A stretch of DNA of 56,418 bases from an uncultured Candidatus Saccharibacteria bacterium (lineage in GTDB: Bacteria; Patescibacteriota; Minisyncoccia; Phycocordibacterales; JACOZG01), in contig CAZLZS010000003.1 in assembly GCA_964564105.1 (NCBI GenBank), positions 1-56,418 on the forward strand, written 5' to 3'. Shown here one piece after another: positions 20,087 through 52,178 of this stretch (the stretch's first letter is position 1; each line of letters begins with the position of its first letter). Position numbers and translations under genes: made by a program. Under the pieces are notes generated by a model. That model saw nothing but the letters and a program-made list of their open reading frames with translations, was not told where the DNA came from and made no database searches.

Positions 20087-20155
20087 ATCCCGTTAGAAAA
20101 TCAAATAAAACTTGAATTTCATCATGAATTATAGTCTGTTATTTTCTAACGGGAT
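20087..20155. repeat. Perfect 15-bp inverted repeat ATCCCGTTAGAAAAT / ATTTTCTAACGGGAT with a 39-nt spacer (CCCGTTAGAA family)
   Basis: The arms lie at 20087-20101 and 20141-20155. The left arm ends 4 nt from the start codon of the DksA-like gene. Confidence 0.9.
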
Positions 20156-20199
20156 TGTAACAAATCCTTTTAGTTTGGCAATCGAGTGTTAACCCAGTC

Positions 20200-21396
20200 C
20201 TAACGGATCGCCCGGCGGCGATTCAAAATTTCCCCGAGAGCGTTTTCATTTTCAGCGGCGGCGATGGTTGCTTGGTCAAGAAACCCATAAAGCAGAATTG
20301 TTTTGCCGTCTTGTTTGATCTGGCGCGTCTCCAGATTGTTAATTAGCCGGTCGGCGAAAATCGAAGTGGTAGCGGTCGGTGCCAGCGCCGTCCGGCCAGT
20401 GAGCTGGTAGAAAAGATTGACCAATAATTTCTCGTTTTGCCGGAGAGTGCTAAAACTCGTTTCATAGCTTTTGGTTTTTAGCAGGAGAAAGGCGCTGGGG
20501 CTATCTATGCCGTCATAACGGCCGAGTAAAAATTTTGGCTCCAGCGACTGGATTAATTTTTCCGGCGGACTGATCGACAGTTGCTCGAGCCACGGTTTTA
20601 AAGCCAGCGGTCGCTCGGCGTCTGTCGGAACGAGCCGTGTGACCCGGCCGGCGGTCACCGCTCCATCATTTAGCGCTTGGCGGAGTTTAATCACCAAAAC
20701 CTCACGGTTCTGGTCCTGCTTAATTTCTATCTGTTCATCAGTGAAGAGAAAGGGTTGTTCGTCCGGAGCAACGATCATCCCGCCGGCCGGCGGCGGTGGT
20801 GGTGGCCAATAAATATAGACCAAGGCCGCTCCACCGAGAAGGAACAAGACCAGAGCGAAAATGGCTAACCAACCGCGATGGGATTTTGGCGCCTTGGCGC
20901 TTGGGCCGAACTTCGTCGGTTCCCGTCCCTGGTCGCGGATGATCGCTTGCGTCAAGGTGGCTCCAGCGGCGGCGGCTTGAGCCAGATCAGTTTTAAGAGT
21001 GCGGATTGGGCTCATTTCGATCGGACTGGCTTTTAGACGGACGATTGTTTGACTAGTGACTTCGGCTTTCCGTTGGCGCGCGGTTGACTCAGCCGCGGCT
21101 TGAACCGCCCGCTGCCGCTCGGCGGCCACGGCGGATTGAGCCGCTTGCCGCTCAGTTCCTTTTTTCTCTTCTTCAGCCAGTCTGGCCGCCACGACTGCCG
21201 CGGCGGCGGCCCGGCGGACAGTTTCGGCCGCTTGCCGCTTGCTTCGTCGCTCACTACCCTCCATAGCTAACTGCGCCTCTTCCCTCCGGCGCCGCAGAAT
21301 CTCTCCCTCGGCCTCCCGTTTCTTCTGCCAAACCTCGCCTTCCATGGCCCGTCTGGCCTCGGCCCGACGGGCCTCTACTAAAATGGTTTCAGACAT
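20200..21396 (-). CDS. Membrane-anchored hypothetical protein (N-terminal charged coiled coil, one TM, extracytoplasmic domain)
   Basis: The ORF track starts at 21567. The likely start is the ATG at 21396 (MSETILVEARRAEARRAMEG), which overlaps the upstream gene stop (ATGTCTGA). The TM helix is WLAIFALVLFLLGGAALVYIYW, followed by PPPPPP. Confidence 0.55.
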   Translation of the reverse strand: MSETILVEARRAEARRAMEGEVWQKKREAEGEILRRRREEAQLAMEGSERRSKRQAAETVRRAAAAAVVAARLAEEEKKGTERQAAQSAVAAERQRAVQAAAESTARQRKAEVTSQTIVRLKASPIEMSPIRTLKTDLAQAAAAGATLTQAIIRDQGREPTKFGPSAKAPKSHRGWLAIFALVLFLLGGAALVYIYWPPPPPPAGGMIVAPDEQPFLFTDEQIEIKQDQNREVLVIKLRQALNDGAVTAGRVTRLVPTDAERPLALKPWLEQLSISPPEKLIQSLEPKFLLGRYDGIDSPSAFLLLKTKSYETSFSTLRQNEKLLVNLFYQLTGRTALAPTATTSIFADRLINNLETRQIKQDGKTILLYGFLDQATIAAAENENALGEILNRRRAIR

Positions 21397-21889
21397 GAAG
21401 GGCCGCCGCCTGTTTTTTGGCCTCGTCTTCTTCGTCCAACCGGGCACGGTACTTAACGGTGTTGGCCTCAATCGCGCTCTCGATCTGCCAAATTTTCTCT
21501 TGGAGCACCCACTTTTCTTTCTCCGCCGCCTGTCTTGTCTCTTGAATGATTTGACGTTTCCTCTCAACCTCTTGTTTGTCTTTGACCAGGGCGGTTTTTG
21601 CCTCGTCGAGCTCGAGTTTGGCCTCAGCTTCCTCGGCCTGTCTTTCCCGTTCGAGAATGGGCGCCAGTTTCTCGCGGACGATCTTTCGTTGATCGTCCAA
21701 CCGGACCCATTCGATCTCCAGAGTCTCTTTTTGTTTATCTAGGTTCGCGAGCAATTGTTCAAGTCTGCTTTGTTCGGCCGCGTTTTGCCGCTCGCGAGTT
21801 TCACGCTCGCGTTTGGCGGTCCACTCCGGCCCTTCCATAGCAGTTCTGGCTTCGAGCCGTTTTATCTCCAGGGGGTCTTCCGGACTCAT
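21389..21889 (-). CDS. Coiled-coil hypothetical protein
   Basis: 166 aa, rich in Glu/Lys/Arg/Gln. Its N-terminal motif LEARTAMEGPEWTAKRERE is repeated in the downstream gene. Confidence 0.5.
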   Translation of the reverse strand: MSPEDPLEIKRLEARTAMEGPEWTAKRERETRERQNAAEQSRLEQLLANLDKQKETLEIEWVRLDDQRKIVREKLAPILERERQAEEAEAKLELDEAKTALVKDKQEVERKRQIIQETRQAAEKEKWVLQEKIWQIESAIEANTVKYRARLDEEDEAKKQAAALHV

Positions 21890-21916
21890 TAGGGTTAATT
21901 ATACTAAATTTAAAAT

Positions 21917-22474
21917 TTAATGGCGATTTTGCTCTGGTGTCGCGGGTCGAGCTCGGCGCTCACGGCCGAAACCGAGGAGGTAGCGCCGCGGATTGTCGCC
22001 GAGATCGAGGAAATCGTCCGCCGCTTCCTTAAGCTTGGCTGAGGTGCTTTTACCAAAGGCCACCACTTCCACTTGATTGCCGCTATGAATCTTTAGATAT
22101 TCAACCAGCGGGACAAAATCGCCGTCGCCCGAAGCGATAATCACCGCATCAAGCCGCGGCGCGAGCTTAACAGTGTCCATCGCTAACCCGACATCCCAAT
22201 CCGCTTTCTTAGCTCCGCCGATGAAAATTTGCAGGTCCTTAGTTTTAATCTCAATCCCGACTTTGCCCAGTGCCTCCAAAAAGTTTTTTTCTTCCCCGGA
22301 TTCAGTGGTGACGACATAAGCAATGGCCCGAACCAGCGTCCGATTGGCCACGGCGTCCTTTAAAATAGCGCCGAAATTGACGCGCGCCTGGTAGAGGTTT
22401 TTGGCGCAGTGGTAAAGATTCTGAGTGTCAATAAACATCCCTACCCGCTGCCCTTGATGTTTAACGACGGGCAT
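21917..22474 (-). CDS. NYN-domain (LabA/DUF88-like) protein
   Basis: 185 aa with [12 protein letters not shown] and [16 protein letters not shown], typical of the LabA-like PIN/NYN fold. Confidence 0.75.
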
Positions 22475-22688: not shown

Positions 22689-22716
22689 GGAGTAATCATA
22701 GCATGACCGCTATAAT

Positions 22717-23583: not shown

Positions 23584-23586
23584 AAG

Positions 23587-23595
23587 TTATCCACA
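23587..23595 (+). promoter_or_regulatory. Perfect consensus DnaA box TTATCCACA (within AGTTATCCACAGTTT)
   Basis: Exact 9-mer, 4 nt after the xerC-like stop. The 13-mer TTATCCACAGTTT is shared with the site at 25460-25472 on the opposite strand. Confidence 0.5.
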
Positions 23596-25201: not shown

Positions 25202-25258
25202 CCATTCTAGCTCAGATTTTGTGGTTTAACTATACTTTTGTTAGACTAGAGATAGTCT

Positions 25259-25330
25259 GTCCTCGTGGTGAAATGGATATCACAACGGTCTTCGGAACCG
25301 TTATTGGGGGTTCGAATCCTCCCGGGGACG
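25259..25330 (+). tRNA. tRNA-Arg (anticodon TCG)
   Basis: Hand-folded cloverleaf. The acceptor is GTCCTCG/CGGGGAC, the anticodon stem ACGGT/ACCGT, the loop CTTCGGA and the T-loop TTCGAAT. CCA is not encoded. Confidence 0.85.
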
Positions 25331-25350
25331 CCCGGGACTTATAGTGGAAA

Positions 25351-25421
25351 GCGGGTATGGTTTAGTGGTAGAATGCATCCTTGCCAAGGATGAGACGGGA
25401 GTCCGATTCTCCCTACCCGCA
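25351..25421 (+). tRNA. tRNA-Gly (anticodon GCC)
   Basis: The acceptor is GCGGGTA/TACCCGC, the anticodon stem CATCC/GGATG, and the loop TTGCCAA. Confidence 0.85.
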
Positions 25422-25463
25422 TATCGGACAAGTCTGCCTGCCGGTAGGCAAGTCCTTTAAAAC

Positions 25464-25472
25464 TGTGGATAA
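25464..25472 (-). promoter_or_regulatory. Perfect consensus DnaA box (TGTGGATAA on the plus strand), with a 7/9 box at 25476-25484
   Basis: Exact 9-mer, 30 nt upstream of the yraN-like start. Confidence 0.5.
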
Positions 25473-25501
25473 TCTTGTGGATTCTGTGCATAAAAGACAT
25501 A

Positions 25502-25900
25502 ATGTCCCAGACGACTAAACAAACAATCGGTAAAAAAGGTGAAGATTTAGCCATTGAGTTCCTTAAGAAACAAGATTACGAGATTCTTGATCGTAATTAT
25601 TGGCAAAAATGGGGTGAAATAGACATTGTGGCTAAAAAAGATGGGATTATTCACTTTGTGGAAGTGAAAACTGTATCACGAGATCATCTATTAATATTGA
25701 ACCGAGAAGAAGATTTTTATGAGCCGGAAGATAATTTGCACCCTTGGAAACTCCGGCGGCTGGCGCGCGCCGTCGAAACTTATCTATTGGACAAAAAAGT
25801 TAGTGACGACATTGACTGGCAAACTGATGCTATCTCTATTTATTTAGATCACAGTGATCAATTATTGAAGATTGATTATTTGCCAAATATTACTTTGTAA
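25502..25900 (+). CDS. yraN: YraN-family (UPF0102) endonuclease-like protein
   Basis: Contains GKKGEDLAIEFLKKQDYEILDRNY...GEIDIVAKKDGIIHFVEVKT. The likely start is the ATG at 25502 (MSQTTKQ), not the track start at 25475. Confidence 0.8.
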   Translation: MSQTTKQTIGKKGEDLAIEFLKKQDYEILDRNYWQKWGEIDIVAKKDGIIHFVEVKTVSRDHLLILNREEDFYEPEDNLHPWKLRRLARAVETYLLDKKVSDDIDWQTDAISIYLDHSDQLLKIDYLPNITL

Positions 25901-25909
25901 ATTCTTAAA

Positions 25910-25980
25910 CGGGGTATAGTGTAATGGCAGCACGAGTCCTTTGGGAGGATTTAGTCTCGGTTCAAATCCGAGTACCCCGA
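25910..25980 (+). tRNA. tRNA-Pro (anticodon TGG)
   Basis: The acceptor is CGGGGTA/TACCCCG, the anticodon stem AGTCC/GGATT, the loop TTTGGGA and the T-loop TTCAAAT. Confidence 0.85.
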
Positions 25981-26083
25981 TCTTGACTTTTTAAACTTGG
26001 TATGCTAGACTATAAATAGTTCAGTTTGGCAAGTAGAGAACCTTGTAAGATAGCCCCAAATCGGGCGGAAAGGATGGTGTCTT

Positions 26084-26431
26084 GTGCATATACTGAAGAG
26101 TTTGACAACAACATTAGTCCTCGTGATCTTGATTCTTGCTGGTCTCCTCATCCTCTGGTCTTTACCCGGGTGTACCGTGGTCAGGACAGAACGATTCGCG
26201 GCCGGAGTGTCAGGAAAAGAAGGCCAAGTGGTGGAACGCGAAACAAGGTACGAGCCGGTTGTTTTTCCGGTGGTGGTCGCGCCAACTTACCCGGGGATGG
26301 GAGTGGTAAATCCGGCAGTGTACGTTTATCGACGACCAATTTACTACCACTACTATCCGGCCGCAGTTTACCGGTACCAGACACCAGTGATCTATCCTCG
26401 ACAGGTGGTCCATGTCCATCGGCATCGGTAG
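26084..26431 (+). CDS. Small lipoprotein, Tyr/Pro/Val-rich
   Basis: 115 aa with a GTG start. A signal peptide with the lipobox LWSLPGC is present. The C-terminal half has YY/PV repeats and ends in HVHRHR. A terminator follows. Confidence 0.5.
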   Translation: MHILKSLTTTLVLVILILAGLLILWSLPGCTVVRTERFAAGVSGKEGQVVERETRYEPVVFPVVVAPTYPGMGVVNPAVYVYRRPIYYHYYPAAVYRYQTPVIYPRQVVHVHRHR

Positions 26432-26457
26432 GGAATCGGGCGGATTCCGCTTTAGAA

Positions 26458-26493
26458 GCTCTCGGTTGTTTTACGCCGAGGGCTTTTTTCTTT
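26458..26493 (+). terminator. Rho-independent terminator
   Basis: GCTCTCGG (26458-26465) pairs with CCGAGGGC (26476-26483), followed by TTTTTTCTTT. Confidence 0.7.
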
Positions 26494-26504
26494 ATGATGT
26501 CATC

Positions 26505-26807
26505 CTAACGGGCTGTAGCCCGTTAGAAGCGCTTATGTTTTACGTTTACATTTTGCAAAGTAAAAGTGATGGTGGGTGGTATACCGGCTATACTCCAGAT
26601 TTGAGAGAAAGAATTTTAGCGCACAATGCTGGAAAAGTCAGATCAACAAAGTCTCGTGTGCCGCTAAGTTTGCTTTATTATGAAGCATGCCATAATTTAC
26701 ATGATGCCCGGGCGAGAGAACGTTATCTTAAAACAGGAATGGGCAAAAGATATTTGAAACAGCGCTTAAAATTCTTTCTCAAAAACGGCGCTTCTAACGG
26801 GCTGTAG
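26505..26807 (+). mobile_element. Putative GIY-YIG cassette abutting tRNA-Pro(GGG)
   Basis: A 15-bp perfect inverted repeat flanks the ORF: GCCCGTTAGAAGCGC at 26518-26532 and GCGCTTCTAACGGGC at 26788-26802. A 14-nt direct repeat CTAACGGGCTGTAG lies at 26505-26518 and 26794-26807. The right copy contains the first 10 nt of the tRNA. Confidence 0.45.
26535..26807 (+). CDS. Small GIY-YIG nuclease-superfamily protein
   Basis: 90 aa from the ATG at 26535, with MFYVYILQSKSDGGWYTGYTPDLRERILAHNAGK ... ARERYLK. The stop TAG is nt 8-10 of the downstream tRNA. Confidence 0.8.
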   Translation: MFYVYILQSKSDGGWYTGYTPDLRERILAHNAGKVRSTKSRVPLSLLYYEACHNLHDARARERYLKTGMGKRYLKQRLKFFLKNGASNGL

Positions 26808-26868
26808 TATACCGGCAGTACGAGCCGATGGGGTCGGCTTAGACCGAGTTCGATTCTCGGCAGCCCGA
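26798..26868 (+). tRNA. tRNA-Pro (anticodon GGG)
   Basis: The acceptor is CGGGCTG/CAGCCCG, the anticodon stem AGCCG/CGGCT, the loop ATGGGGT and the T-arm CCGAG-TTCGATT-CTCGG. Its first 10 nt overlap the GIY-YIG CDS. Confidence 0.8.
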
Positions 26869-26975
26869 AAATTCCCAGTTGCATTTTCTCGAGCTTGTGC
26901 TAGGATGATTTTGGAATCAGCCGGATTGTCTGGCTGTCATTGGTCTTTGTGAAGATTTAGAAAGGAAGTGAAATC

Positions 26976-27782
26976 ATGCAGTGCGATCAATGTGATGGAA
27001 GGGGTCGGAGATTCGTCACTGAAAGAGTTGTCCAAGGGCACAGTTACGGTCCAGAGACCGAGGGCCACTACGAGAAGTGTTGGCAGTGTGATGGTAGTGG
27101 AGAAACTCGGCCTTTCGACATGAACGAGCAAGAGGTTCTCGATATTCTGGCTAGAGTCGGGGCAGTGATCACTGGCAGCCATATCGTCTACACTTCTGGC
27201 AGGCATGGCACGGCGTATGTCAACAAAGATGCCATCTATCCGCACACCGCGGAAACTTCCCGCCTTTGTCGCGCACTCGCCGATCGGTTCGCGAACGACA
27301 GCAGGGTGGAGGTGGTCATCGCTCCGGCCATCGGCGGTGTGATCCTCTCGCAATGGACGGCGCATCATCTTTCCGAGCTTACCGGTCAGGAGGTGCTTGC
27401 GATTTATGCCGAGTATTGGAGAGAGCCCGCTGACGTTTTTGTTATCAAACGTGGCTACGATAAGATTATCACTGGCAAAAACGTTCTGGTGGTGGAAGAT
27501 GTTCTTACCACCGGCAGCTCGGCTAAGAAGGTGATCGAGGCCACACGCGCGGTCGGTGGAAACGTCATCGGTCTCGGCGCTCTCGTGAATCGCGGTGGAA
27601 TTACGGCCGCGGCCATTGGTCTGGAGACCGGACGGCTCGAAGCCCTCGTCAACCTGCCGCTCGACTCGTGGGATGAAAAGGAGTGCTCGCGGACTGGCCC
27701 GTGCTCTCGCGGTGTACCCATTAACACAGATGTTGGCAAGGGGCGTGAATTTCTAGAACGGAGAAAAAGGGATGGATCATAG
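26976..27782 (+). CDS. Type I phosphoribosyltransferase (orotate-PRT-like) with an N-terminal DnaJ-type CxxCxGxG zinc-finger pair
   Basis: 268 aa. The zinc-finger pair is CDQCDGRG and CWQCDGSG. The PRPP-binding loop is VLVVEDVLTTGSS. A Cys-containing C-terminus follows (ECSRTGPCSRGVPI). Confidence 0.7.
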   Translation: MQCDQCDGRGRRFVTERVVQGHSYGPETEGHYEKCWQCDGSGETRPFDMNEQEVLDILARVGAVITGSHIVYTSGRHGTAYVNKDAIYPHTAETSRLCRALADRFANDSRVEVVIAPAIGGVILSQWTAHHLSELTGQEVLAIYAEYWREPADVFVIKRGYDKIITGKNVLVVEDVLTTGSSAKKVIEATRAVGGNVIGLGALVNRGGITAAAIGLETGRLEALVNLPLDSWDEKECSRTGPCSRGVPINTDVGKGREFLERRKRDGS

Positions 27783-27891
27783 ACGATATGGTCTTGTTGA
27801 TGTGTTGATCAGTGCCGCGTTTTTCCTGTTCGCCGTATTAGCAGTTTTCTTTTTTAGAAGAGAGGACCGACCGTAATCGTCCTCGCTAATC

Positions 27892-27917
27892 GCCCCGCCT
27901 TCGGCGGGGCTCATTTT
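27892..27917 (+). terminator. Rho-independent terminator
   Basis: GCCCCGC-CTTCG-GCGGGGC is followed by TCATTTTGT. Confidence 0.6.
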
Positions 27918-27949
27918 GTCTGGCGAGACGAGTTTGTTAGAATAAACCG

Positions 27950-28366
27950 ATGGATAATTTACTGCGGTTCTTGATTGTGGCGACAGCGGGCGGCGGTTTT
28001 GCCGTCGCTTTTTACATTTGGCGCCAGAAACGGCGCGCCGAAGCACTCGTCTGCCCGCTCAATTCCAATTGCGCCACCGTCATCCACAGTCAATATTCGA
28101 CTTTTTTAAGTCTGCCGCTTGAACTCTGGGGGATGGCTTACTATGGACTTGTGGTTTTAACTTATCTCTCTCTCATTCTTTCACCCGCGGCCCGGGCGCT
28201 CAATCTGATACCCCTCATCTCGTGGCTAAGCGTTTTAGCCTTTCTTTTCTCTCTCTACCTAACTTATATTCAAGCCGTCAAACTGCGCGAGTGGTGCACT
28301 TGGTGTTTGATCTCGGCTCTTTTCTGCTCCATAATCTTTCTGACTTCGCTGGCGCTTTATCAATAA
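27950..28366 (+). CDS. Vitamin K epoxide reductase (VKOR) family membrane protein
   Basis: 138 aa with 4 TM helices, a loop Cys pair (CPLNSNC) and the CTWC redox motif in the last helix. Confidence 0.75.
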   Translation: MDNLLRFLIVATAGGGFAVAFYIWRQKRRAEALVCPLNSNCATVIHSQYSTFLSLPLELWGMAYYGLVVLTYLSLILSPAARALNLIPLISWLSVLAFLFSLYLTYIQAVKLREWCTWCLISALFCSIIFLTSLALYQ

Positions 28367-28370
28367 ATTC

Positions 28371-28432
28371 GCGGGAATAGTTTAACGGCAGAATGACTGC
28401 CCTGTCTGCCGACAGGCAGGCTTCCAAGCAGG
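28371..28432 (+). pseudogene. Orphan tRNA-Gly(TCC)-like 5' fragment (acceptor-5', D-arm, anticodon-arm remnant) with a 19-nt hairpin insertion
   Basis: GCGGGAATAGTTTAACGGCAGAATGACTGCC...CTTCCAAGCAGG aligns with GCGGACATAGTATAGTGGCAGTACGGCTGCCTTCCAAGCAGC of the intact tRNA at 28673. No matching 3' acceptor (TTCCCGC) was seen in the flanking sequence by eye. Confidence 0.6.
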
Positions 28433-28436
28433 ATTT

Positions 28437-28682
28437 ATGATACTTGTATATGCGATTTGCGATCGACCCAGTAAAGAAATATATGTTGGTTTGACCAATA
28501 ATTTGGAACGGCGGATTAGAGAACATCGACGGGGTCAAAGTTTCTACACGAGAAGATTTAGAGATTTTGTTGTTTTGTATCAAGAGGAGTATCCTGATTA
28601 TCGTTCGGCACGTAAACGAGAGAAATATCTCAAATCTGGTATTGGTAAGGAGTTTCTTCGCTCCTTAATATCGCGGACATAG
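28437..28682 (+). CDS. Small GIY-YIG nuclease-superfamily protein
   Basis: 81 aa with MILVYAICDRPSKEIYVGLTNNLERRIREHRRGQ ... ARKREKYLKSG. The stop TAG (28680-28682) is nt 8-10 of the downstream tRNA. Confidence 0.8.
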   Translation: MILVYAICDRPSKEIYVGLTNNLERRIREHRRGQSFYTRRFRDFVVLYQEEYPDYRSARKREKYLKSGIGKEFLRSLISRT

Positions 28683-28743
28683 TATAGTGGCAGTACGGCT
28701 GCCTTCCAAGCAGCAGAGGCGAGTCCGATTCTCGCTGTCCGCA
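28673..28743 (+). tRNA. tRNA-Gly (anticodon TCC)
   Basis: The acceptor is GCGGACA/TGTCCGC, the anticodon stem GCTGC/GCAGC, and the loop CTTCCAA. Its first 10 nt overlap the GIY-YIG CDS. Confidence 0.85.
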
Positions 28744-37502: not shown

Positions 37503-37862
37503 CTAAAAAGCCGAGGAGCCGATTTTATCGACAATGCCGAGCACCGGGAGGGGCACGAGGCAAAAGGCAATGGCCTCAAAACACGGCGTGCCGCCAGCCG
37601 GTAGCGCCGTGCCCAAGACATTGGGCCCGGGCGTGAACACATTGTAGTAAGGGAAGATAACCGTGCCGGAAGTGATGAGAAAGCGCCCGGGTCGCGGCGC
37701 GCCAACCGTAATGGCCACGCCATTGCAGCAATACTCCACCACCAAAATCCGGCCGCCAAAGGGAATCAGGCCCTGGCCGGAGGCGCGCAAGCCGCCGCCG
37801 AAGAAAAAGAAAATCATTCCCAGCGCGGCGACGGACAGAAAAATTAAATAAATTTTGGTCAT
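37503..37862 (-). CDS. Small secreted Cys-containing hypothetical protein
   Basis: 119 aa with a signal peptide (MTKIYLIFLSVAALGMIFFFF). It has a 4-nt overlap with the upstream IPT-domain gene. Confidence 0.5.
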   Translation of the reverse strand: MTKIYLIFLSVAALGMIFFFFGGGLRASGQGLIPFGGRILVVEYCCNGVAITVGAPRPGRFLITSGTVIFPYYNVFTPGPNVLGTALPAGGTPCFEAIAFCLVPLPVLGIVDKIGSSAF

Positions 37863-38389
37863 AAATCCAGCACGAATTCACCCGGGGTCTTGGTCGCGCC
37901 GTTCGCGTTTCTAATGTAAAAACGATAACGCAGTTCCGGAAAGGTCTCGGTTTTAATCGCCCCGAGATTAGCCGGCAGGCCCGGCGGCTCAACGCGCAGA
38001 GTGATGGTTTGGCCGTCGGGCGAGGAGAGATCGGGAAGAGTGCTGTAACTGGCGTAAACATTGTTGCCGGTCGGCGTAAAACCCGAACCGCGGATGGTAA
38101 TGATTGTACCAACCCCGCCGTGGGACGGTGTGATACCAGAAATTTCCGGCTGGCCATAAATTGTTAGAGGAGAAATCGGGGTGGCGACTGATTTTTCCGG
38201 CGCCGGCCGGTAAACCCCGTTAGAAACTTCGTTTCTAACGGGGTAAATAATTGTCGGCCTGTTTTGAGCCGCTAAAACCTCACTCAGGCGCGTGAGTAAA
38301 ACTTGCAATTGCCTCAATAATTCCGGGTTGATGATCAGGGCTGACCACAACAGGATCGAGGCGGCTAATTTCTTATTCATTTTATCCAC
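37859..38389 (-). CDS. Secreted IPT/TIG-like domain protein
   Basis: 176 aa with a signal peptide. An IPT-like segment is present (ISGITPSHGGVGTIITIRGSGFTPTGNNVY). The linker PVRNEVSNGV is encoded by the palindrome at 38214-38244. Confidence 0.6.
   Translation of the reverse strand: MDKMNKKLAASILLWSALIINPELLRQLQVLLTRLSEVLAAQNRPTIIYPVRNEVSNGVYRPAPEKSVATPISPLTIYGQPEISGITPSHGGVGTIITIRGSGFTPTGNNVYASYSTLPDLSSPDGQTITLRVEPPGLPANLGAIKTETFPELRYRFYIRNANGATKTPGEFVLDL
38214..38244. repeat. 31-nt perfect palindrome ACCCCGTTAGAAAC-TTC-GTTTCTAACGGGGT inside a CDS (CCCGTTAGAA family)
   Basis: Exact 14-bp arms. It is identical to the copy at 52111-52141 except for one loop base. Confidence 0.9.
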
Positions 38390-38432
38390 TTTATCATAAA
38401 ATCTGGTATCTCGCCGGAAAAAATCGGATATA

Positions 38433-38502
38433 ACCCCGTTAGAAGTTCAACCACCTTAACTTATTCACTAAAAACTGCTGTGAACGAAACTTCTAACGGG
38501 GT
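38433..38502. repeat. Perfect 15-bp inverted repeat ACCCCGTTAGAAGTT / AACTTCTAACGGGGT with a 40-nt spacer (CCCGTTAGAA family)
   Basis: The arms lie at 38433-38447 and 38488-38502, in the divergent promoter region. The right arm runs into TATAAT (38502-38507), 8 nt before the ATG at 38515. Confidence 0.9.
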
Positions 38503-38514
38503 ATAATGTAGCCG

Positions 38515-39186
38515 ATGAAGAAACTCGGGATAATAATTTTGTTTATCCTGTTATTTTCCGTCTGGGGTTTATGGTATTTGGGCGGCCAGAAGACTGTCGA
38601 GCCGACAGCGACGGCACCAACTGAATTGACTGGGGATGAGAAACTCGTCGCTCTGGTACAGAAAACCCGCGCCGCAACCGGCCGACCCCTGCTTGATCCG
38701 GCGGCCGCGGCCGGCGCTAGGCCGGCGAGCGCCTTTCAAGTGACGGAAAACGACCTAGTGATCGAGACGGGCGACAATCCGGACGAAACGCGGCGCTACG
38801 GCCAAGCGGTCAGCCAACTTTTCCAAAATATCGCACCCAGTCAAGCCGGCACTGAATTAAAACTGGCGCTCGAGGCCCTGGAAGAGCAGTCGCCGGTCAA
38901 GGCCGCGACCGTAAAGCAAGAGGCCGAGCGCTACGGCCGGTTGGCCGCCGGACTCCAGCGACTGGTGGCGCCAGCGGCACTAAAAGTCGTGCATCTAAAT
39001 CTTTTAAACGCGGTTTTGGGTCTGGCCGAGATTGATTCGTACTTGGCGGAAATCTTGACTGAACCGATCCTGGCCCTGGATCAGGCACCGATCTTTGCGC
39101 ACCGCTACGAGCGGCTGGCCGGCGCGGTGATGATTCTGAATCAAGTGCTGGCGGTTCATAATCTGCCCTTGATTGCCGCCTTATGA
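38515..39186 (+). CDS. Membrane-anchored hypothetical protein, first gene of the T4SS-like operon
   Basis: 223 aa with an N-terminal TM helix (LGIIILFILLFSVWGLWYL) and a helical body. It has a 4-nt overlap with the next gene. Confidence 0.55.
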   Translation: MKKLGIIILFILLFSVWGLWYLGGQKTVEPTATAPTELTGDEKLVALVQKTRAATGRPLLDPAAAAGARPASAFQVTENDLVIETGDNPDETRRYGQAVSQLFQNIAPSQAGTELKLALEALEEQSPVKAATVKQEAERYGRLAAGLQRLVAPAALKVVHLNLLNAVLGLAEIDSYLAEILTEPILALDQAPIFAHRYERLAGAVMILNQVLAVHNLPLIAAL

Positions 39187-46104: not shown

Positions 46105-46485
46105 GTGCAAAACACTGAGCAGGAAAACAAAAGGGGGTTAAAAGAAAGATCCTATCATTATGCATTGGAAATAATAGCCCTGGTAAACCATCTGCCCAAA
46201 CAAGACTCGGCTGCAATGGTTATCTACAAGCAACTAATACGTAGCGCCACCAGCATCGGAGCCAATATTATAGAAGCCCAAGCCGGCAGTTCAAGAAAAG
46301 ATTTTACAAACTTTTTCAGTTACGCCCTAAAATCCGCCAATGAGAGCAAATTTTGGTTAGGATTATTGAGAGATTCTGGTAAAATAGACAGCGGTCGAGC
46401 CAGTGGCCTGTTAAACGAAACTGCCGAATTGGCCAACATTTTAGCTTCAAGTATCATAACCTTAAAAGGCAAGAGGAATTTATGA
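46105..46485 (+). CDS. Four-helix-bundle protein (23S rRNA intervening-sequence protein family)
   Basis: 126 aa with YHYALEIIALVNHLP......IYKQLIRSATSIGANIIEAQAGSSRKDFTNFFSYALKSANESKFWLGLL, the family signature. Confidence 0.85.
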   Translation: MQNTEQENKRGLKERSYHYALEIIALVNHLPKQDSAAMVIYKQLIRSATSIGANIIEAQAGSSRKDFTNFFSYALKSANESKFWLGLLRDSGKIDSGRASGLLNETAELANILASSIITLKGKRNL

Positions 46486-46537
46486 TTTTAGTTTTAACTT
46501 GTTGTTTTAAATTTTTCGCTTTTCACTTTACGCTTCC

Positions 46538-46939
46538 ATGAACTTTCAGGTGCCGCAATTTATCGAGGTGGAAGATAAAATCTTCGGCCCGCTGACCTTC
46601 AAACAATTCGTCTATCTCGCCGGTGGCGGGGGCGCGGTGTTCATGGCCTATGCCCTTCTACCAATTTATCTGAGCCTCTGGCTGATGATCCCGCTCACCA
46701 TTCTGGCGCTCGCCCTGGCGTTCTATAAAGTCAACAACCGGCCATTCGTCAATATCCTAGAATCGGCCTTTCGTTACACCCTCACGACCAAACTCTACCT
46801 CTGGAAAAAACAACCAAAAGCCGTCGAGCCGGCCGGCATCGCTTTAGGCCGGGAAAAACCAGTCGAGATTCCGAAACTATCCCGGAGCAAACTGCGCGAT
46901 CTGGCTTGGAGTTTGGATGTCAAGGAAAACATTAGATAA
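46538..46939 (+). CDS. PrgI-family (VirB3-like) T4SS membrane protein
   Basis: 133 aa with QVPQFIEVEDKIFGPLTFKQFVYLAGGG followed by two TM helices, the pattern of PrgI family proteins encoded next to VirB4. Confidence 0.7.
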   Translation: MNFQVPQFIEVEDKIFGPLTFKQFVYLAGGGGAVFMAYALLPIYLSLWLMIPLTILALALAFYKVNNRPFVNILESAFRYTLTTKLYLWKKQPKAVEPAGIALGREKPVEIPKLSRSKLRDLAWSLDVKENIR

Positions 46940-46972
46940 CGCAAAACTAAAAGCGAAAAACTAAAAACATAA

Positions 46973-47632
46973 ATGGAAACGGCAAAGGTAGAAAACAAAA
47001 CCAAGGCCCGGGCGGCGCAGGACTTTGTGCCGATTGAAGAAATCCGCGACGGCGTGGTGATTTTGAAAACGAGCGGCCTGCGGCTCGTGCTTATCTCATC
47101 CTCAATCAACTTCGCGCTTAAATCCGAGGACGAACAAACCGCTCTACTCCTGCAGTATCAGAACTTTCTCAACGCGCTCGAATTCCACATTCAAATTTTC
47201 GTCGAATCGCGAAAACTGGATATCCGGCCCTACCTGACAATTCTGGAAGATCTGGAGAAAAATCAATTGAACGATTTGATTAAGATTCAAACTCGCGAAT
47301 ACGTCGAGTTCGTTCGCACCTTCACCGAGAACACCAACATTATGTCCAAAACTTTTTTCGTCGTCATTCCCTACGAGCCGCCGGTGCTTGAGAAACCGAG
47401 CGGCATCTTCGTCAAACTCGGTCTGAGTCGCCGCCCCGCCTCGGGCGGGGCGGCGGGGGCGCCGGATAAATTTGAAGAATACCGCTCGCAACTGGAACAG
47501 CGCGCCACCGTCGTGGCGCAAGGGCTCTCACGCTTGGGCCTGCGGGTAGTCCAGCTCGGCACCGAGGAATTGGTCGAGTTGTTCTTTAAAATTTTCAACC
47601 CGGGCGAAGCCGAAGCGCCGCAGTTATCATGA
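46973..47632 (+). CDS. Stand-alone VirB4 N-terminal-domain-like protein
   Basis: 219 aa. FVPIEEIRDGVVILKTSGLRLVLISSSINFALKSEDEQTALLLQYQNFLNALEFHIQIF resembles the extreme N-terminus of Gram-positive VirB4 homologues (recalled pattern, not searched). It has an ATGA overlap with the ATPase gene. Confidence 0.5.
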   Translation: METAKVENKTKARAAQDFVPIEEIRDGVVILKTSGLRLVLISSSINFALKSEDEQTALLLQYQNFLNALEFHIQIFVESRKLDIRPYLTILEDLEKNQLNDLIKIQTREYVEFVRTFTENTNIMSKTFFVVIPYEPPVLEKPSGIFVKLGLSRRPASGGAAGAPDKFEEYRSQLEQRATVVAQGLSRLGLRVVQLGTEELVELFFKIFNPGEAEAPQLS

Positions 47633-49485
47633 GCTTGTTTGGCAAGAGAAAACCATCAGAAAACATCATCGCGCCGATTCTGCCGGCCGACATTTACAAA
47701 ATGGGGGTGCTCGAGCTCAAAGACATCATCGCGCCCTCGGCCTTAAAGATTACCCCGCGCCTGATCCACCTCGGCGAGAAAATGGCCCGGACCCTGTTTG
47801 TCATTTCCTATCCGCGGTTTCTAGCCGGCGATTGGTTTTCGCCCATCGTCAATCTGGACAAAATTTTTGACATTTCCATTCTCGTCCACCCCATCGACAC
47901 GGCGGTGGCTCTCCGGCAGCTCGAAAAAAAGGTCGCCGAGGTCCAAAGCCAGATCAGCATCAAAGAGGAAAAAGGGCTGGTGCGCGATCCGATCCTCGAC
48001 ATCGCTTATCAGGATATTGAAAATCTCCGCGACGCTCTCCAGCAGGCGCGGGAGAAAATTTTTGATGTCGGACTTTACCTGACGATTTACGGCGACTCGG
48101 AAGACGAACTCAATAAAATTGAAACCGAGATCAAGGGCATCCTGGACGCCAAATTGGTCTACCTGAAACCGGCTCTGTTCCAACAGGAAGAGGGTTTCAA
48201 AAGCACCTTGCCGGTGGCGGAGGATCGGCTCGGCGTCAATTACAAACTCAATTCCGCGCCGCTGTCGTCGCTGTTCCCATTTGTCTCTTTTGATCTGACT
48301 TCCAACCGCGGCATCCTCTACGGCATCAACCGGCATAACTCATCGCTGGTTCTGTTTGATCGTTTTTCGCTGGAAAATTACAACTCGGTGATCTTCGCCA
48401 AGTCCGGCGCCGGCAAATCCTACGCCACCAAACTGGAGATTCTGCGAAGCTTAATGTTTGACGCCGACATTATCGTGGTTGATCCCGAGCGGGAGTATGA
48501 ATTCCTGGCCGAGGCCGTGGGCGGCCGATATTTCAACATTTCTCTCACCTCCGAGCACCACATCAACCCCTTTGACCTGCCGTACCCCCGCGAGGACGAA
48601 TCGCCGGCCGATGTCCTGCGCTCGAACATCATCAACCTCGTCGGCCTGTTCCGGCTGATGTTGGGCGGCCTGACGCCCGATGAGGATGCGATCTTGGACA
48701 GCGCCATTACGGAAACCTACGCCTTGAAAGACATCGCGCCGGAGGCGGATTTTACCGGCAAGCCGGCACCCTTGTTATCGGATTTAGAGCTGGTGCTAGC
48801 CGGGATGGAGGGCGGCGAGTCACTGGCTCAACGGCTTGCCAAATACACCCAGGGCACCTGGGCTGGTTTTATCAACAAGCCGACCAACGTGGACATCAAT
48901 AAAAAATTCGTCGTGTTTTCGGTCCGCGATATGGAAGATGAGTTAAAGCCAGTGGCGATGTATATTGTCATGCACAACATCTGGAACGCCATCCGGCGGA
49001 ACTTGAAAAAGCGGCTCTTGGTGATTGACGAGGCCTGGTGGATGATGAAGGCCAAGGATACGGCATCCTTTCTTTTCTCCCTGGTCAAACGCGGTCGGAA
49101 ATACTATTTGGGTGTGGCGACGATCACCCAGGATGTCGGCGACTTCTTACTCTCGCCCTACGGTTTGCCGATCATCACTAATTCCTCGCTCCAGCTCCTC
49201 TTGAAGCAGTCGCCGGCCTCAATTGATCTGGTCCAGAAAACCTTTCAGCTTACTGATGAAGAAAAGTATCTGCTCTTGGAATCAAATGTTGGAGAGGGGA
49301 TCTTCTTCGCCGGACTCAAACACATCGCCGTCAAAATCATCGCCTCCTACACCGAGGATCAAATCATCACCTCGGATCCGTCTCAACTCCTGACGATCAA
49401 AAAGGCCAAGCAAGAACTGGCGGCGGGTGACTGGGAAGTCGGACTTCCAAATGGAAGTCCGACTTCCCAACCTCGGCAAACATGA
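47629..49485 (+). CDS. virB4: VirB4-family T4SS ATPase
   Basis: 618 aa with Walker A FAKSGAGKSY and Walker B LLVIDEAWWMM, plus GVATITQD. The N-terminal half has the VirB4 pattern (RTLFVISYPRFL..DWFSPI). Confidence 0.85.
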   Translation: MSLFGKRKPSENIIAPILPADIYKMGVLELKDIIAPSALKITPRLIHLGEKMARTLFVISYPRFLAGDWFSPIVNLDKIFDISILVHPIDTAVALRQLEKKVAEVQSQISIKEEKGLVRDPILDIAYQDIENLRDALQQAREKIFDVGLYLTIYGDSEDELNKIETEIKGILDAKLVYLKPALFQQEEGFKSTLPVAEDRLGVNYKLNSAPLSSLFPFVSFDLTSNRGILYGINRHNSSLVLFDRFSLENYNSVIFAKSGAGKSYATKLEILRSLMFDADIIVVDPEREYEFLAEAVGGRYFNISLTSEHHINPFDLPYPREDESPADVLRSNIINLVGLFRLMLGGLTPDEDAILDSAITETYALKDIAPEADFTGKPAPLLSDLELVLAGMEGGESLAQRLAKYTQGTWAGFINKPTNVDINKKFVVFSVRDMEDELKPVAMYIVMHNIWNAIRRNLKKRLLVIDEAWWMMKAKDTASFLFSLVKRGRKYYLGVATITQDVGDFLLSPYGLPIITNSSLQLLLKQSPASIDLVQKTFQLTDEEKYLLLESNVGEGIFFAGLKHIAVKIIASYTEDQIITSDPSQLLTIKKAKQELAAGDWEVGLPNGSPTSQPRQT

Positions 49486-49835
49486 TGGGCGGCGGGAAGA
49501 TCCAATATCGCATTCCGGTTTGGGAAAGCAGTTTGATGATCGCCGTGGCGGTAATTTATGACCTAGTCCAAATTGCCTTGACTTGGCTACTCGGTTGGCT
49601 TGGCCTTGGTTTTATCGGCGCTTGGCTCATGACGCTCTGGGCCGGCCTAACCTTTGGCTTGTGGTTTACCTTGAAAGGAGCGAGTATAATGAACGGCAGG
49701 CGCGCGGCTTCGTTCGGCCTCGGCGCGATCATTGAGGCCATCCCGCTCTTAAACGCTCTCCCGGGGTGGACGGTTTCCACAATCATAAGTTTGTCGGTCA
49801 CGCGGGCCGAGGACATTTTAACCAGTAGGCGATGA
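49482..49835 (+). CDS. Small polytopic membrane protein (T4SS-like operon)
   Basis: 117 aa with 3-4 TM helices. Both ends overlap neighbours by 4 nt. Confidence 0.55.
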   Translation: MMGGGKIQYRIPVWESSLMIAVAVIYDLVQIALTWLLGWLGLGFIGAWLMTLWAGLTFGLWFTLKGASIMNGRRAASFGLGAIIEAIPLLNALPGWTVSTIISLSVTRAEDILTSRR

Positions 49836-50527
49836 AAAAATTACTTATTATCTCGCTATTGATTCTTGCTCCCGTCTTCACCGGAGCGCAAACTTCGGCA
49901 GTAGATCTTGTTTGGGAAGCCGAGACTTATGTTCCGCCCGGCTATCGCGGTCGCACTCGGCCTAGCCCCGAGAGTCTGGTCCGGGTGGTGGCGATCACGT
50001 CGATTAAAAATCCGATTTTCCATTGGCGGAAAGACGGCGCGGACCTAAAGAGCGCCTCCGGCGCCGGCAAAAACACGTTTGACTTCCGCGCCGCCCCAAG
50101 CGGCAGTAATTTAATCGAAGTAACGGTAACGCGCTCGGACGGCTCGATCGGCGCCTCTGGCGCGGCTCAGATCCCCATCGCCGCGCCGAAAATTTTATTC
50201 TACGAGGTTAAAGACGGCCAGATTGATTACCGTCGGGCGCTGAAAAACTTAAATATTGTCACTGACCAGACCAAAATTATCGCCGAGCCGTTTTATTTTT
50301 CATCAATAGATTGGCTCAACCGCCGGCTCGTCTTCAACTGGTCGGCTAATCAGCAAAAGGTCGAACCAGCGACCGAAGACCCGCGCTTCCTGACGCTCAT
50401 CACCAACGCCGATTCCGGCGCCGGCGAAACTACGCTTGACTTAAAAATCACCAATACCGAACATCCGCTCCAAACCGCCGCGGCCAAGTTACTGATCAGT
50501 TTCGGTCAGTCAGGTTTTGGATTTTAA
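49832..50527 (+). CDS. Secreted hypothetical protein (T4SS-like operon)
   Basis: 231 aa with a signal peptide (MKKLLIISLLILAPVFTGAQT) and beta-rich sequence. Confidence 0.55.
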   Translation: MKKLLIISLLILAPVFTGAQTSAVDLVWEAETYVPPGYRGRTRPSPESLVRVVAITSIKNPIFHWRKDGADLKSASGAGKNTFDFRAAPSGSNLIEVTVTRSDGSIGASGAAQIPIAAPKILFYEVKDGQIDYRRALKNLNIVTDQTKIIAEPFYFSSIDWLNRRLVFNWSANQQKVEPATEDPRFLTLITNADSGAGETTLDLKITNTEHPLQTAAAKLLISFGQSGFGF

Positions 50528-50532
50528 TTATT

Positions 50533-50880
50533 ATGTTGAGAAATAAAAAATTATGGATCCTGTTCACACCAGGTGTTCTTCTGTTAGAACCGATCTCCGA
50601 CCCCGCAACCCAATCTACTCTTTCTCAACCAGATAGTTTAACCACTTATCTAGGCACTATCTTCCCGATCATCATCGGCCTGGCCGCCACTTTAGCGATA
50701 ATTATGATTGTGATCGGCGGCCTGGAATATATTTTGAGTCCCATACCAGGCAAAAAAGAAGAAGGGAAGAGGCGGATTACTGAAGCAATCTGGGGGTTGA
50801 TTCTTGCCCTGGCCGCTTATTTGATTCTCAAAACCATTAACCCCAATTTGGTAACTCTGCAGTTTCTTATTCCATCATGA
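50533..50880 (+). CDS. VirB2/TrbC-like T4SS pilin
   Basis: 115 aa. Two hydrophobic helices flank a short charged loop (IIGLAATLAIIMIVIGGLEYILSPIPGKKEEGKRRITEAIWGLILALAAYLILKTI), the typical T4SS pilin architecture. Confidence 0.65.
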   Translation: MLRNKKLWILFTPGVLLLEPISDPATQSTLSQPDSLTTYLGTIFPIIIGLAATLAIIMIVIGGLEYILSPIPGKKEEGKRRITEAIWGLILALAAYLILKTINPNLVTLQFLIPS

Positions 50881-52178
50881 CCAAACGATTGATAATCTTA
50901 ATCGTCATTTTAATCGTTCTGCTGGCAGGCGTGGGGATTTGGTGGTGGGTGGCGTCGAGAGCGGCGCCTCCGGCGGCGCCGCCGGTTGATCTAAGTCAGG
51001 CCTTTCCGGTTTCGCCGCCTCGGCCGCCGGCGCCAGTTACCGGAACAACATCGATAACATCACTAGCGACGACACCGATTCCCGAAACGCCCAGCTACCG
51101 ATCCAACCGACTTATCACTTTGAGCGAACGCGCCGTGGCCGGTGTGACGATTATTCCTGCCGCCACCTCTACCGAATCCGACCGAGTCTTATTTCTGGAG
51201 CGCGAAACTGGTCTGATTGTGGAAATGGCTCTGGCCGAGCGCGCCAGACGCGAGCTGGCGCGGCTACCGCTCCGGGCGCCGCTGGCCGAAACGATTTTAA
51301 CTTTAGACTCTCAAAAATTATCGGTTTGGTTTTCCACCATTGCCAGCACTGGTCAAAAAAATTATTTTAGCGGCGCGGTCAATCTCGACAGCGGCGCCAC
51401 TGACAGCTTGACCTTGCCGGAAATTGAATCCGCGCCCCTCGGCGACGCGGTGCAAAACTTGACTCTGGCCCCGGGCCGCGACCGGCTCTTTACTCTCGAA
51501 CGAGTGGGGCAAGAAACGATCGGCAAGGTGCTTGATTTGAAAATTAAAAAGAGCCAGTTGGTTTTCAACTCCCGCGCCAATCAGTGGCTCGTCCACTGGC
51601 CGGAGAAAAATCTGATTGCCCTAACCAGCAAACCAACGGCCGAAGCCCCTGGTTATCTTTATTTATTGAATTTGAGAAATGCTGACTGGCAAAAAATATT
51701 CGGCGGCGTGAACGGTCTCGCCACCCTGGTGAGCCCTGACGGGCAAAAAATTCTCTACAGCCGAAGCAACGGTCGCGGCTTGGAACTTGGGTTGTACGAC
51801 CGACTAAAGAATGAGAGTCGGACTCTGGCCATCGCCACTCTGCCGGAAAAATGTGTTTGGGCGGGCGATGCCGCAACAATCTATTGCGCCGTGCCGCGAT
51901 CTTTGCCTCGGGCGACTTACCCGGACGATTGGCTAGCGGGCGAAATAATCTTTGATGATTTACTATGGCAAATCAACGTTGAAAGCGGCGTGAGCCGCCT
52001 CAGCTGGGCCGACGAGCCCGGACTCGGCGATGTTATCAATCTCCTGACCGTTCGCGGCGGCGAGAAATTCATCTTTATTGACCGGCTGACGAGCCGTCTT
52101 TTTCTGATTGACCCCGTTAGAAACTTTGTTTCTAACGGGGTTGATGAGTTAATACCGCCGCCGCTTGCCGCCGAATAA
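50877..52178 (+). CDS. Membrane-anchored protein with a Pro-rich linker and a beta-propeller-like (TolB/PD40-like) domain
   Basis: 433 aa with a TM helix (LIILIVILIVLLAGVGIWWWV), a PPAAPP linker and a PD40-like segment (LVSPDGQKILYSRSNGRGLELGLYD). The last 23 codons run through the palindrome and overlap the yidC 3' end. Confidence 0.55.
   Translation: MTKRLIILIVILIVLLAGVGIWWWVASRAAPPAAPPVDLSQAFPVSPPRPPAPVTGTTSITSLATTPIPETPSYRSNRLITLSERAVAGVTIIPAATSTESDRVLFLERETGLIVEMALAERARRELARLPLRAPLAETILTLDSQKLSVWFSTIASTGQKNYFSGAVNLDSGATDSLTLPEIESAPLGDAVQNLTLAPGRDRLFTLERVGQETIGKVLDLKIKKSQLVFNSRANQWLVHWPEKNLIALTSKPTAEAPGYLYLLNLRNADWQKIFGGVNGLATLVSPDGQKILYSRSNGRGLELGLYDRLKNESRTLAIATLPEKCVWAGDAATIYCAVPRSLPRATYPDDWLAGEIIFDDLLWQINVESGVSRLSWADEPGLGDVINLLTVRGGEKFIFIDRLTSRLFLIDPVRNFVSNGVDELIPPPLAAE
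52111..52141. repeat. 31-nt perfect palindrome ACCCCGTTAGAAAC-TTT-GTTTCTAACGGGGT at the convergent 3' ends of two genes
   Basis: Exact 14-bp arms. The yidC stop codon TAG (52132-52134, minus strand) lies in the right arm. Confidence 0.9.

Follow-up and report, generated by a model that had tools for sequence, protein, structure and literature searches.

The five inverted-repeat loci found in the window, the whole stretch of 56,418 nucleotides (nt) analysed here from an uncultured Candidatus Saccharibacteria bacterium (contig CAZLZS010000003.1), are likely to belong to one and the same family of tiny mobile DNA elements, whose coding member carries a stand-alone GIY-YIG nuclease. Sequence comparison establishes the membership of the family, its target duplications, its occupied and empty sites, its in-frame insertions in genes and the linkage of the open reading frame (ORF) to the inverted arms, and the GIY-YIG protein is plausibly the enzyme that mobilises both the coding and the short forms. 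The original prediction, made from the letters of the window, had compared the loci with a family of miniature transposable elements with inverted repeats (MITEs) or of repetitive extragenic palindromes (REPs) with one coding member. The MITE-like description is borne out by the further copies, the duplications, the empty sites and the link between ORF and arms; the REP-like one is less apt, since REPs make no target duplication. The elements (E1 to E5), together with the two genes that E2 contains or touches, are as follows.

20088-20154, unstranded: E1, 67 nt without an ORF, T-CCCGTTAGAAAAT...ATTTTCTAACGGG-A; arms 20087-20101 and 20141-20155 (15 nt, spacer 39 nt); flanking repeat TTGTA at 20083-20087 and 20155-20159
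26518-26802, plus strand: E2, ORF-bearing, G-CCCGTTAGAAGCGC...GCGCTTCTAACGGG-C, 283 nt from CCCG to CGGG; arms 26517-26532 and 26788-26803 (16 nt, spacer 255 nt); flanking repeat TGTA at 26514-26517 and 26803-26806
26535-26807, plus strand: GIY-YIG nuclease ORF of E2, 90 amino acids; Pfam PF01541, E=3.5e-13
26798-26868, plus strand: tRNA-Pro(GGG), called by ARAGORN; Rfam tRNA model 47.3 bits with relaxed filters
38215-38243, unstranded: E3, 29-nt palindromic element, 27 nt between its ends; arms 38214-38227 and 38231-38244 (14 nt, loop 3 nt); flanking repeat TAAA at 38211-38214 and 38244-38247
38434-38501, unstranded: E4, 68 nt without an ORF, between divergent genes; arms 38433-38447 and 38488-38502 (15 nt, spacer 40 nt); flanking repeat TATAA at 38429-38433 and 38502-38506
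52112-52140, unstranded: E5, 29-nt palindromic element at the overlapping 3' ends of convergent ORFs; arms within 52111-52141 (14 nt perfect, loop 3 nt); flanking repeat TTGA at 52108-52111 and 52141-52144

The core CCCGTTAGAA has 10 exact matches in the window, which make up just these five inverted pairs, against a chance expectation of 0.12 and a maximum of 2 per shuffle in dinucleotide-preserving shuffles; all five loci lie where they had been predicted, with perfect arms of 14-16 nt and spacers of 3, 3, 39, 40 and 255 nt. Allowing 1-2 mismatches in CCCGTTAGAA gave chance-level extras only, except for a one-mismatch copy at 26503-26512 beside E2. The 31-nt palindromes of E3 and E5 differ, as had been noticed, solely in the third loop base (TTC versus TTT). 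The ends of the window copies read Y-CCCGTTAGAA...TTCTAACGGG-R, and a short direct repeat stands on either side of all five, TNNA at three and TNNNA at two, while that of E2 can be extended to CTAACGGGCTGTAG at 26505-26518 and 26794-26807. A 6-bp duplication with element ends at CCCG/CGGG suits most copies of the family and fails for E1, E4, E5 and the ORF-bearing element of a related locus (L211, below); boundaries at Y...R with duplication of T-N2-3-A are the better reading.

Occupied and empty sites, a comparison that the original prediction had proposed, were found among related genomes. The 11 residues encoded by E3 and its duplication are missing, exactly, from all 9 host homologues compared, including proteins from metagenome-assembled genomes (MAGs) of Candidatus Vogelbacteria, a hint that the window stems from this lineage. 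DNA alignments of the window (strings reverse-complemented) with two syntenic loci, L211 and L212, gave the same picture: at the E3 site the window reads ATTATTTAC, CCCG..CGGG, GTTTACCGG, and the empty sites read ATTA-TTTATCG in L211 and ATTA-TCTACCG in L212. E4 is occupied in the window and in L211 (CATTATA, CCCCG..CGGGG, TTATATCCGATTT) and empty in L212, where the alignment shows GTATTATATCGGATTT (GTATTATATCGG as the empty-site reading); the E4 interiors of the window and L211 are about 70% identical, which points to an old insertion. Conversely, L211 carries a GIY-YIG element (GGATTTATGA, CCCCGTTCCAAAT..ORF..ATTTGGAACGGGG, TATGAAAATT) with TATGA duplicated, at a site unoccupied in the window (GGATTTATGACCAAAATT). 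The empty E3 and E4 sites keep one single copy of the repeat. Such pairs of occupied and empty sites show mobility with T-N2-3-A duplication for both the short and the ORF-bearing form, and the mobility of the family is near certain. At the site of the L211 GIY-YIG element, L212 has a solo right-arm remnant around 4530-4545 (TATAACGGGG, TATGAAAAT), which suggests that an element was lost there and left one end behind.

The duplications also bear on the idea that the palindromes are single-stranded DNA hairpins processed by an HUH (Y1) transposase whose gene lies elsewhere, in the manner of REPs with their REP-associated tyrosine transposases (RAYTs) or of IS200/IS605. Hairpin repeats are indeed dispersed here and one member flanks a small gene, and common left flanks such as TTAC and TTGAT coincide with targets of IS608 and ISDra2. 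However, IS200/IS605 elements and REPs make no target duplications, which are present here; the arms enclose a GIY-YIG gene instead of a Y1 transposase, and they are true terminal inverted repeats, not subterminal hairpins. We regard such a system as very improbable, the least credible of the explanations considered.

A search of other genomes, likewise proposed earlier, found many further copies. Scanning one genome per species (GTDB) for two cores 6-66 nt apart yielded at least 120 loci, with an estimated chance yield of about 30, and the short copies are spread over five or more phyla, namely Patescibacteria, Planctomycetota, Omnitrophota, Desulfobacterota and Nitrospirota. Among 80 records from these loci, 38 belong to many classes of Patescibacteria, Saccharibacteria included, 17 to Planctomycetota, 8 are Desulfobacterota-type, 6 Omnitrophota, 3 Nitrospirota-type and 2 Gammaproteobacteria, and 6 are unclassified. 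The near-identity of the ends in such distant phyla implies extensive horizontal transfer. In IMG/VR contigs classed as viral, the arm pair was seen in thirteen stretches (L217-L229), mostly with the usual flanks and with four copies on one 30-kb contig; no GIY-YIG homologue was found in these stretches, the stretches being all that was searched. These contigs hint at a transfer vehicle and are a possible route between phyla, or they may be misclassified cellular DNA.

Family-wide rules were drawn from 137 copies at the genome loci. They are 24-132 nt long, and their interiors, from 4 to >100 nt, are mostly unrelated to one another; a few interior families recur between genomes, e.g. a GC-rich one of about 66 nt, and near-identical 38-nt copies occur on two contigs of one MAG (L031, L063). 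The flanks are strongly non-random, reading R-Y-(T)-N-R-Y ahead of CCCG and R-Y-N-(A)-R-Y after CGGG. Target-site duplications, whose presence the original prediction had left to be checked, are evident: left and right hexamers agree in register at at least 4 of 6 positions in 89/137 copies, against about 10/137 when the register is shifted by one. From 94 non-redundant repeat-flanked copies the target was reconstructed as R-T-N-N-A-Y, with no information beyond the hexamer. The two-base outward extension of the stem is paired in 131/137 and 98/137 copies, which might be taken for covariation in a selected structure; this is rejected, because a target that is palindromic in its specified positions and duplicated pairs automatically, and no structural selection is needed. 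The two variable positions within the core, paired in 124/137 and 103/137 copies, are a true property of the element ends.

Twenty-nine of the 137 copies lie within long ORFs, with a length divisible by three in 27 of them, and 24 use the reading frame CCC GTT AGA A. Hosts confirmed by Pfam include DnaE, SecA, GatB, UvrC, IF-2, TsaD, FolD, RsmH, HolB and ProB, whose domains are split or stretched at the position of the copy. In RsmH (L004) the duplicated ATTGAT supplies the codons for the Ile-Asp that opens the stretch IDGIIFDLGLSS, which presumably matches a conserved RsmH motif. The arms are open in two of three frames, and short copies with a length divisible by three can thus survive as in-frame PVR[NS]...SNG peptides in essential genes. 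E3 in the window, correctly placed within a coding sequence from the start, is also inserted in frame: it lies in a minus-strand TIG-domain gene (37859-38389), where 29 + 4 = 33 nt add 11 in-frame codons, PVRNEVSNGVY. E5 is read through in frame by the ORF at 50877-52178 (PVRNFVSNGV), and the convergent YidC-like gene at 52132-52848 takes its stop, TAG, from inside the E5 arm.

These insertions speak against reading the palindromes as functional sites, whether operators, hairpins at transcript ends or RNA-processing sites, or promoter modules, and not as mobile DNA. That reading can point to hairpins that are stable (-14 to -15 kcal/mol as single-stranded DNA, z-scores -5 to -10; for E1 as a DNA hairpin -14.3 kcal/mol, z -4.9), to E5 between convergent genes, and to TACAAT/TATAAT followed by 7 nt and ATG right after E1 and E4. 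E1 stands immediately upstream of a minus-strand DksA/TraR-type zinc-finger gene (19700-20083), and the right repeat of E4 makes up TATAAT 7 nt ahead of the ATG at 38515. A 64-77-nt subfamily, mostly from Saccharibacteria and other Patescibacteria, also ends exactly at a start codon (CGGG followed directly by ATGAAR...; L030, L048, L107, L051, L087, L001), with left flank ACYTGT in 5 of the 6 and TATAAT-like or TGnTATAAT boxes in several interiors. Against it, apart from the in-frame copies in DnaE, SecA, GatB and others, stand the target duplications and empty sites, the lack of a T-tract after the window hairpins and of any promoter or terminator consensus called at E3 or E4, which led us to reject promoters or terminators as the identity of the palindromes. 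The variable stem position shows G-T and A-C combinations at much the same rate (19 versus 15), so that there is no strand-specific RNA wobble signal, and a primary role as RNA structure is rejected as well. The binding-site or structured-RNA function offered as an alternative in the original prediction leaves in-frame insertions, duplications and empty sites unexplained, and we consider functional sites as the primary identity to be improbable. Secondary co-option at some sites is possible, and the elements may bring promoters to leaderless genes or re-create them there.

The E2 arms flank a GIY-YIG ORF, as the original prediction had it, and elsewhere, too, such ORFs regularly stand between these arms. 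The right arm encodes the final codons of the E2 ORF (SNG), and the flanking duplication provides its stop, TAG. The protein has 639 homologues at E <= 1e-10, of which the best 120 are mostly 84-94 residues long and 61-76% identical; 76 of these 120 have the C-terminus LTG or SNG, which is what the two open frames of TCTAACGGG encode, and the miscalled N-termini of several homologues (an MNPVR start, or PLE inside) are translations of the left arm. A metagenome scan with the protein profile found 536 relatives, and when the arms were checked in the best 80 with at most 1 mismatch, both bound the ORF in 67, at loci picked solely by protein similarity and with an estimated chance rate of about 4e-5 per locus. 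Where the arms are perfect over at least 11 nt, the ORF-bearing elements span 267-314 nt, with 275-277 nt as the commonest length, and about half of their ORFs end in ...LTG with the flank, T-(G/A)-A, as stop codon. Arm variants are always altered on both sides (e.g. GTTACA/TGTAAC, GTGAGA/TCTCAC, CACG/CGTG, GTTCCA/TGGAAC), and the nearest-neighbour protein belongs to the same arm class in 51/65 cases, a value reached by 0/2000 permutations. Within 1.5 kb, the protein-selected loci also contain about 30 short copies that share the 9-nt core. One 137-kb scaffold has two different copies, each placed precisely at the start codon of the gene that follows, with junctions ATGAAT to ATGAAA and ATGAAC to GTGAAA. 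Seven tail-to-head junctions, TCTAACGGG-N5-6-CCCGTTAG, show that insertion is often next to an existing end or an end-like sequence.

The E2 protein is a single domain in which Tyr5, Tyr16, Arg26 and His30 are invariant and Glu62 is at least 90% conserved; these are read as catalytic residues, and the nuclease thus looks active. It matches no NCBIfam model above cut-off, and its match to TIGR01453 is far below cut-off and covers the N-terminal part only. In a profile search against the PDB the nearest entries were the UPF0213 proteins BH0048 and EF2693 (1zg2 E=2e-11, 1ywl E=4.4e-7), then SLX1. The AlphaFold model (mean predicted local distance difference test, pLDDT, 87.7) had 1zg2 as its top Foldseek match, followed by Slx1 nuclease domains (template modelling score about 0.6) and the catalytic domain of I-TevI (1ln0). 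The protein is a stand-alone UPF0213/SLX1-like catalytic domain.

Taken together, the elements have ends Y-CCCGTTAGA(A/G)NN...NN(T/C)TCTAACGGG-R, with an invariant core of about 9-10 bp within a perfect inverted repeat of 11-16 bp, and insert at R-T-N-N-A-Y sites with duplication of T-N(2-3)-A. The full-length form of about 280 bp, represented by E2, has as its sole gene the 84-90-residue stand-alone GIY-YIG nuclease of UPF0213/SLX1 type, its ORF starting 5-50 nt past the left arm, running into the right arm and often using a stop codon of the duplicated target. E1, E3, E4 and E5 are short forms, which range from 24 to about 130 nt and have nothing but the arms around an arbitrary interior; we propose that these are moved in trans, MITE-fashion. 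In the proposed mechanism, the nuclease would bind both arms and cut at the element/flank boundaries and at T-N2-3-A targets, putatively next to T on each strand; because the target is palindromic, it is probably a symmetric oligomer. Gap-filling and ligation by the host would then yield the duplication and complete the insertion. We put forward, tentatively and as somewhat short of an even chance, that these elements constitute a new superfamily of prokaryotic DNA transposons, the smallest autonomous ones (about 280 bp), with a GIY-YIG nuclease as sole protein, about 10-bp inverted ends, T-N2-3-A cuts, reliance on host repair and mobilised palindromes down to 24 nt, which would go on to settle in frame in essential genes of many phyla.

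Several observations speak against this account of the family. Roughly a third of the ORF-bearing copies have no clean direct repeat, the flanks being unclean (e.g. GTTTAC/GTGAAC) or inverted (CCTTGC/GCAAGT), and one closely related ORF-bearing subgroup lies in flanks that are themselves repeated. The interiors of short and ORF-bearing copies have no similarity, so that the short copies are not simple deletion derivatives of the long form, an origin we reject. At arm position 10, short copies often differ from the ORF-bearing copy of their contig. A GIY-YIG gene stands within 8 kb at only 2/120 motif-selected loci, flanked by arms at neither, and the second GIY-YIG gene of the window (28437-28682) has no such arms. 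GIY-YIG enzymes are hydrolytic nucleases, and we know of none that performs transposition; as they only hydrolyse, insertion would depend on host repair.

The subgroup with repeated flanks (L145, L146, L150, L154, L155, L167, L185, L148) consists of near-identical GIY-YIG elements with arms CCCGTTAGAGATCA, whose flanks are interrelated and partly swapped between left and right, with no simple target duplication; from this arrangement they appear to be embedded in another repeat family.

Alternatively, the palindromes may be moved by another, unlinked enzyme, the GIY-YIG gene being a passenger or a homing-type selfish gene in the element loop; such a gene might cut palindromes that have no ORF and enter them by copying as the break is repaired. 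The unrelated interiors and the scarcity of the gene near motif-selected loci fit this explanation, as do the armless GIY-YIG genes, at 28437-28682 in the window and at 13/80 protein-selected loci; moreover, the protein consists of a nuclease domain, without any module for DNA binding or strand transfer, and a palindromic target, two abutting arms, suits a small homodimeric nuclease. On the other hand, in the loci examined the elements have no other recurrent neighbour gene, the ORF is tailored to the arms (C-terminus in the right arm, stop in the duplication, tight size range), the arm variants follow the protein phylogeny, and the 12-16 bp of homology that the arms provide is little for recombinational homing. 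We regard a separate enzyme as unlikely, though it is the strongest competitor of a mobilising GIY-YIG nuclease.

With that nuclease as the candidate enzyme, the family can be set beside known systems. E1, E3, E4 and E5 resemble MITEs in being small (29-68 nt) and non-coding, with 14-15-nt perfect terminal inverted repeats, target duplication, empty sites in relatives (E3, E4) and dispersed copies within a genome, here four short ones in 56 kb. Inverted ends, a short target duplication at a preferred target, numerous ORF-less copies and a longer form with the same ends and one protein are shared with MITEs and their parent insertion sequences (e.g. Correia elements or MITEs of IS630/IS5-type origin). 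Unlike those parents, the sole protein here is an 84-90-residue GIY-YIG domain and no DDE, HUH, serine, tyrosine or DEDD transposase, and unlike MITEs the short copies do not derive from the long form by deletion. The smallest insertion sequences known to us are about 600-700 bp, compared with about 280 bp for the coding form here, which is not an insertion sequence in the usual (ISfinder) sense because it has no recognised transposase class.

Rickettsia palindromic elements (RPEs) are likewise dispersed palindromes, found in frame in housekeeping genes and between genes. They are about 100-150 bp and restricted to Rickettsia, and to our knowledge have no autonomous partner or enzyme; by that description the elements here differ in going down to 24-31 nt, in occurring in at least five phyla, and in having T-N2-3-A duplications and an ORF-bearing form. 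The GIY-YIG homing endonucleases (I-TevI, T4 Seg) share the catalytic fold and the selfish habit. Both also favour tRNA regions, SegB being located in the T4 tRNA cluster and the elements here being found in tRNA-Pro (E2, L142, L143), with a second GIY-YIG copy in tRNA-Gly. Homing endonucleases, however, have a long C-terminal DNA-binding domain and one cognate site, with no inverted ends or duplication, whereas the protein here is the catalytic domain alone (84-90 residues) and serves many unrelated sites. The absence of a DNA-binding domain, the many sites, the inverted ends and the duplications thus exclude a homing endonuclease gene. UPF0213/YhbQ proteins and the SLX1 nuclease domain are the closest relatives in sequence and structure and have the stand-alone size in common; no function or mobile context of UPF0213 was assigned in the literature searched, and SLX1 works together with SLX4 on branched DNA and is not known to have its gene in a mobile element.

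In rRNA genes of the candidate phyla radiation (CPR), GIY-YIG ORFs were reported in non-intron insertions judged to be outside homing, along with many insertions of <200 bp that have no ORF (Tsurumaki et al. 2024, PMC11270868). The bacterial group is the same, and that paper reports neither inverted ends nor duplications, nor any connection of one kind of insertion with the other. These insertions may be the same elements as the CCCGTTAGA-armed family; among the loci we collected, none lies inside an rRNA gene. From REP/RAYT systems, which make no target duplication and have a Y1 (HUH) gene, the elements differ in their duplications and their GIY-YIG gene. The arms also contain GTTAGA and TCTAAC, the hexamers of typical R' and R'' core sites of integron attC. 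An attC identity is rejected, since the order is reversed (GTTAGA...TCTAAC, not TCTAAC...GTTAGA) and the arms are perfect; in contrast to attC there are no extrahelical bases, and elements of 24 nt exist, inside genes and with duplications.

No description of this sequence or of a GIY-YIG-based transposable element was found in the literature. If the GIY-YIG protein does mobilise the family, a further nuclease class would join the short list of enzymes that mobilise prokaryotic DNA, the lower size limit of an autonomous element would be set anew, and, with a new transposon superfamily, the orphan UPF0213/YhbQ family would gain its first biological role. We know of no mobilising enzyme for in-frame palindromic elements, those of Rickettsia included, and the protein would be a candidate; 90 residues and a 10-bp site make the system experimentally tractable. 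Core proteins of Patescibacteria, Planctomycetota, Omnitrophota and other phyla contain odd inserted peptides (PVRN...SNG, PLE...LTG) that the family explains, as it does miscalled starts and ends of genes next to the elements.

E2 has a particular relation to its tRNA gene. Nucleotides 1-4 (CGGG) of tRNA-Pro(GGG) come from the end of the E2 right arm, and the original 5' end of the gene, CGGGCTGTAG, is displaced to 26509-26518, just left of E2. In the window and in two other loci from different organisms (L142, L143), an ORF-bearing element sits at the identical point of tRNA-Pro(GGG), after nucleotide 10. No empty tRNA-Pro site was obtained, homologues of the neighbouring phosphoribosyltransferase being at most 74% identical and non-syntenic. 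The original prediction had considered that the motif might occur only as part of tRNA-Pro genes; among the window copies only E2 touches a tRNA, and flank positions 4 and 6 mismatch the invariant U8 and G10 of tRNAs, so a tRNA-Pro artefact is rejected. With default filters Rfam missed tRNA-Pro(GGG) both in the whole window and in 501 nt; the 47.3 bits were obtained on a 101-nt stretch.

The second GIY-YIG ORF of the window (28437-28682, 81 residues, 35% identical to the E2 protein) has no CCCGTTAGA arms; its left neighbour is a degenerate 5'-half copy of tRNA-Gly(TCC) at 28379-28435, split by a GC hairpin, and it overlaps the 5' end of the intact tRNA-Gly(TCC) at 28673-28743. By its layout, 28379-28743 seems to be another kind of GIY-YIG element, one that invades a tRNA gene and restores it. 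Small nuclease genes are interspersed throughout the tRNA cluster at 25258-28743, and one of them, a UPF0102 gene (YraN-like nuclease family) in the region 25475-25980, ends 10 nt ahead of tRNA-Pro(TGG), whose leader, TTCTTAAA followed by CGGGG, resembles the element arm TTCTAA followed by CGGGG. A GC-rich hairpin, CTGCCG(R)YAGGCAG, stands beside or inside tRNA sequences of the window at 25433-25455 and 28408-28428, and similar strings occur inside some elements elsewhere (interiors of L105 and L114).

The window has further inverted repeats. Two unrelated perfect palindromes, with no obvious flanking repeat, lie at 4309-4353 (21-nt arms, 3-nt loop, 45 nt and thus a multiple of three, within the minus-strand ORF 3230-4975) and at 49432-49469 (18-nt arms, 2-nt loop, near the end of the ORF 47629-49485); they may represent further families of in-frame palindromic insertions. 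A PrgI-family ORF at 46538-46939 stands between imperfect AT-rich inverted repeats of about 30 nt (46503-46532 and 46940-46969, 80% complementary) in the region 46478-46974.

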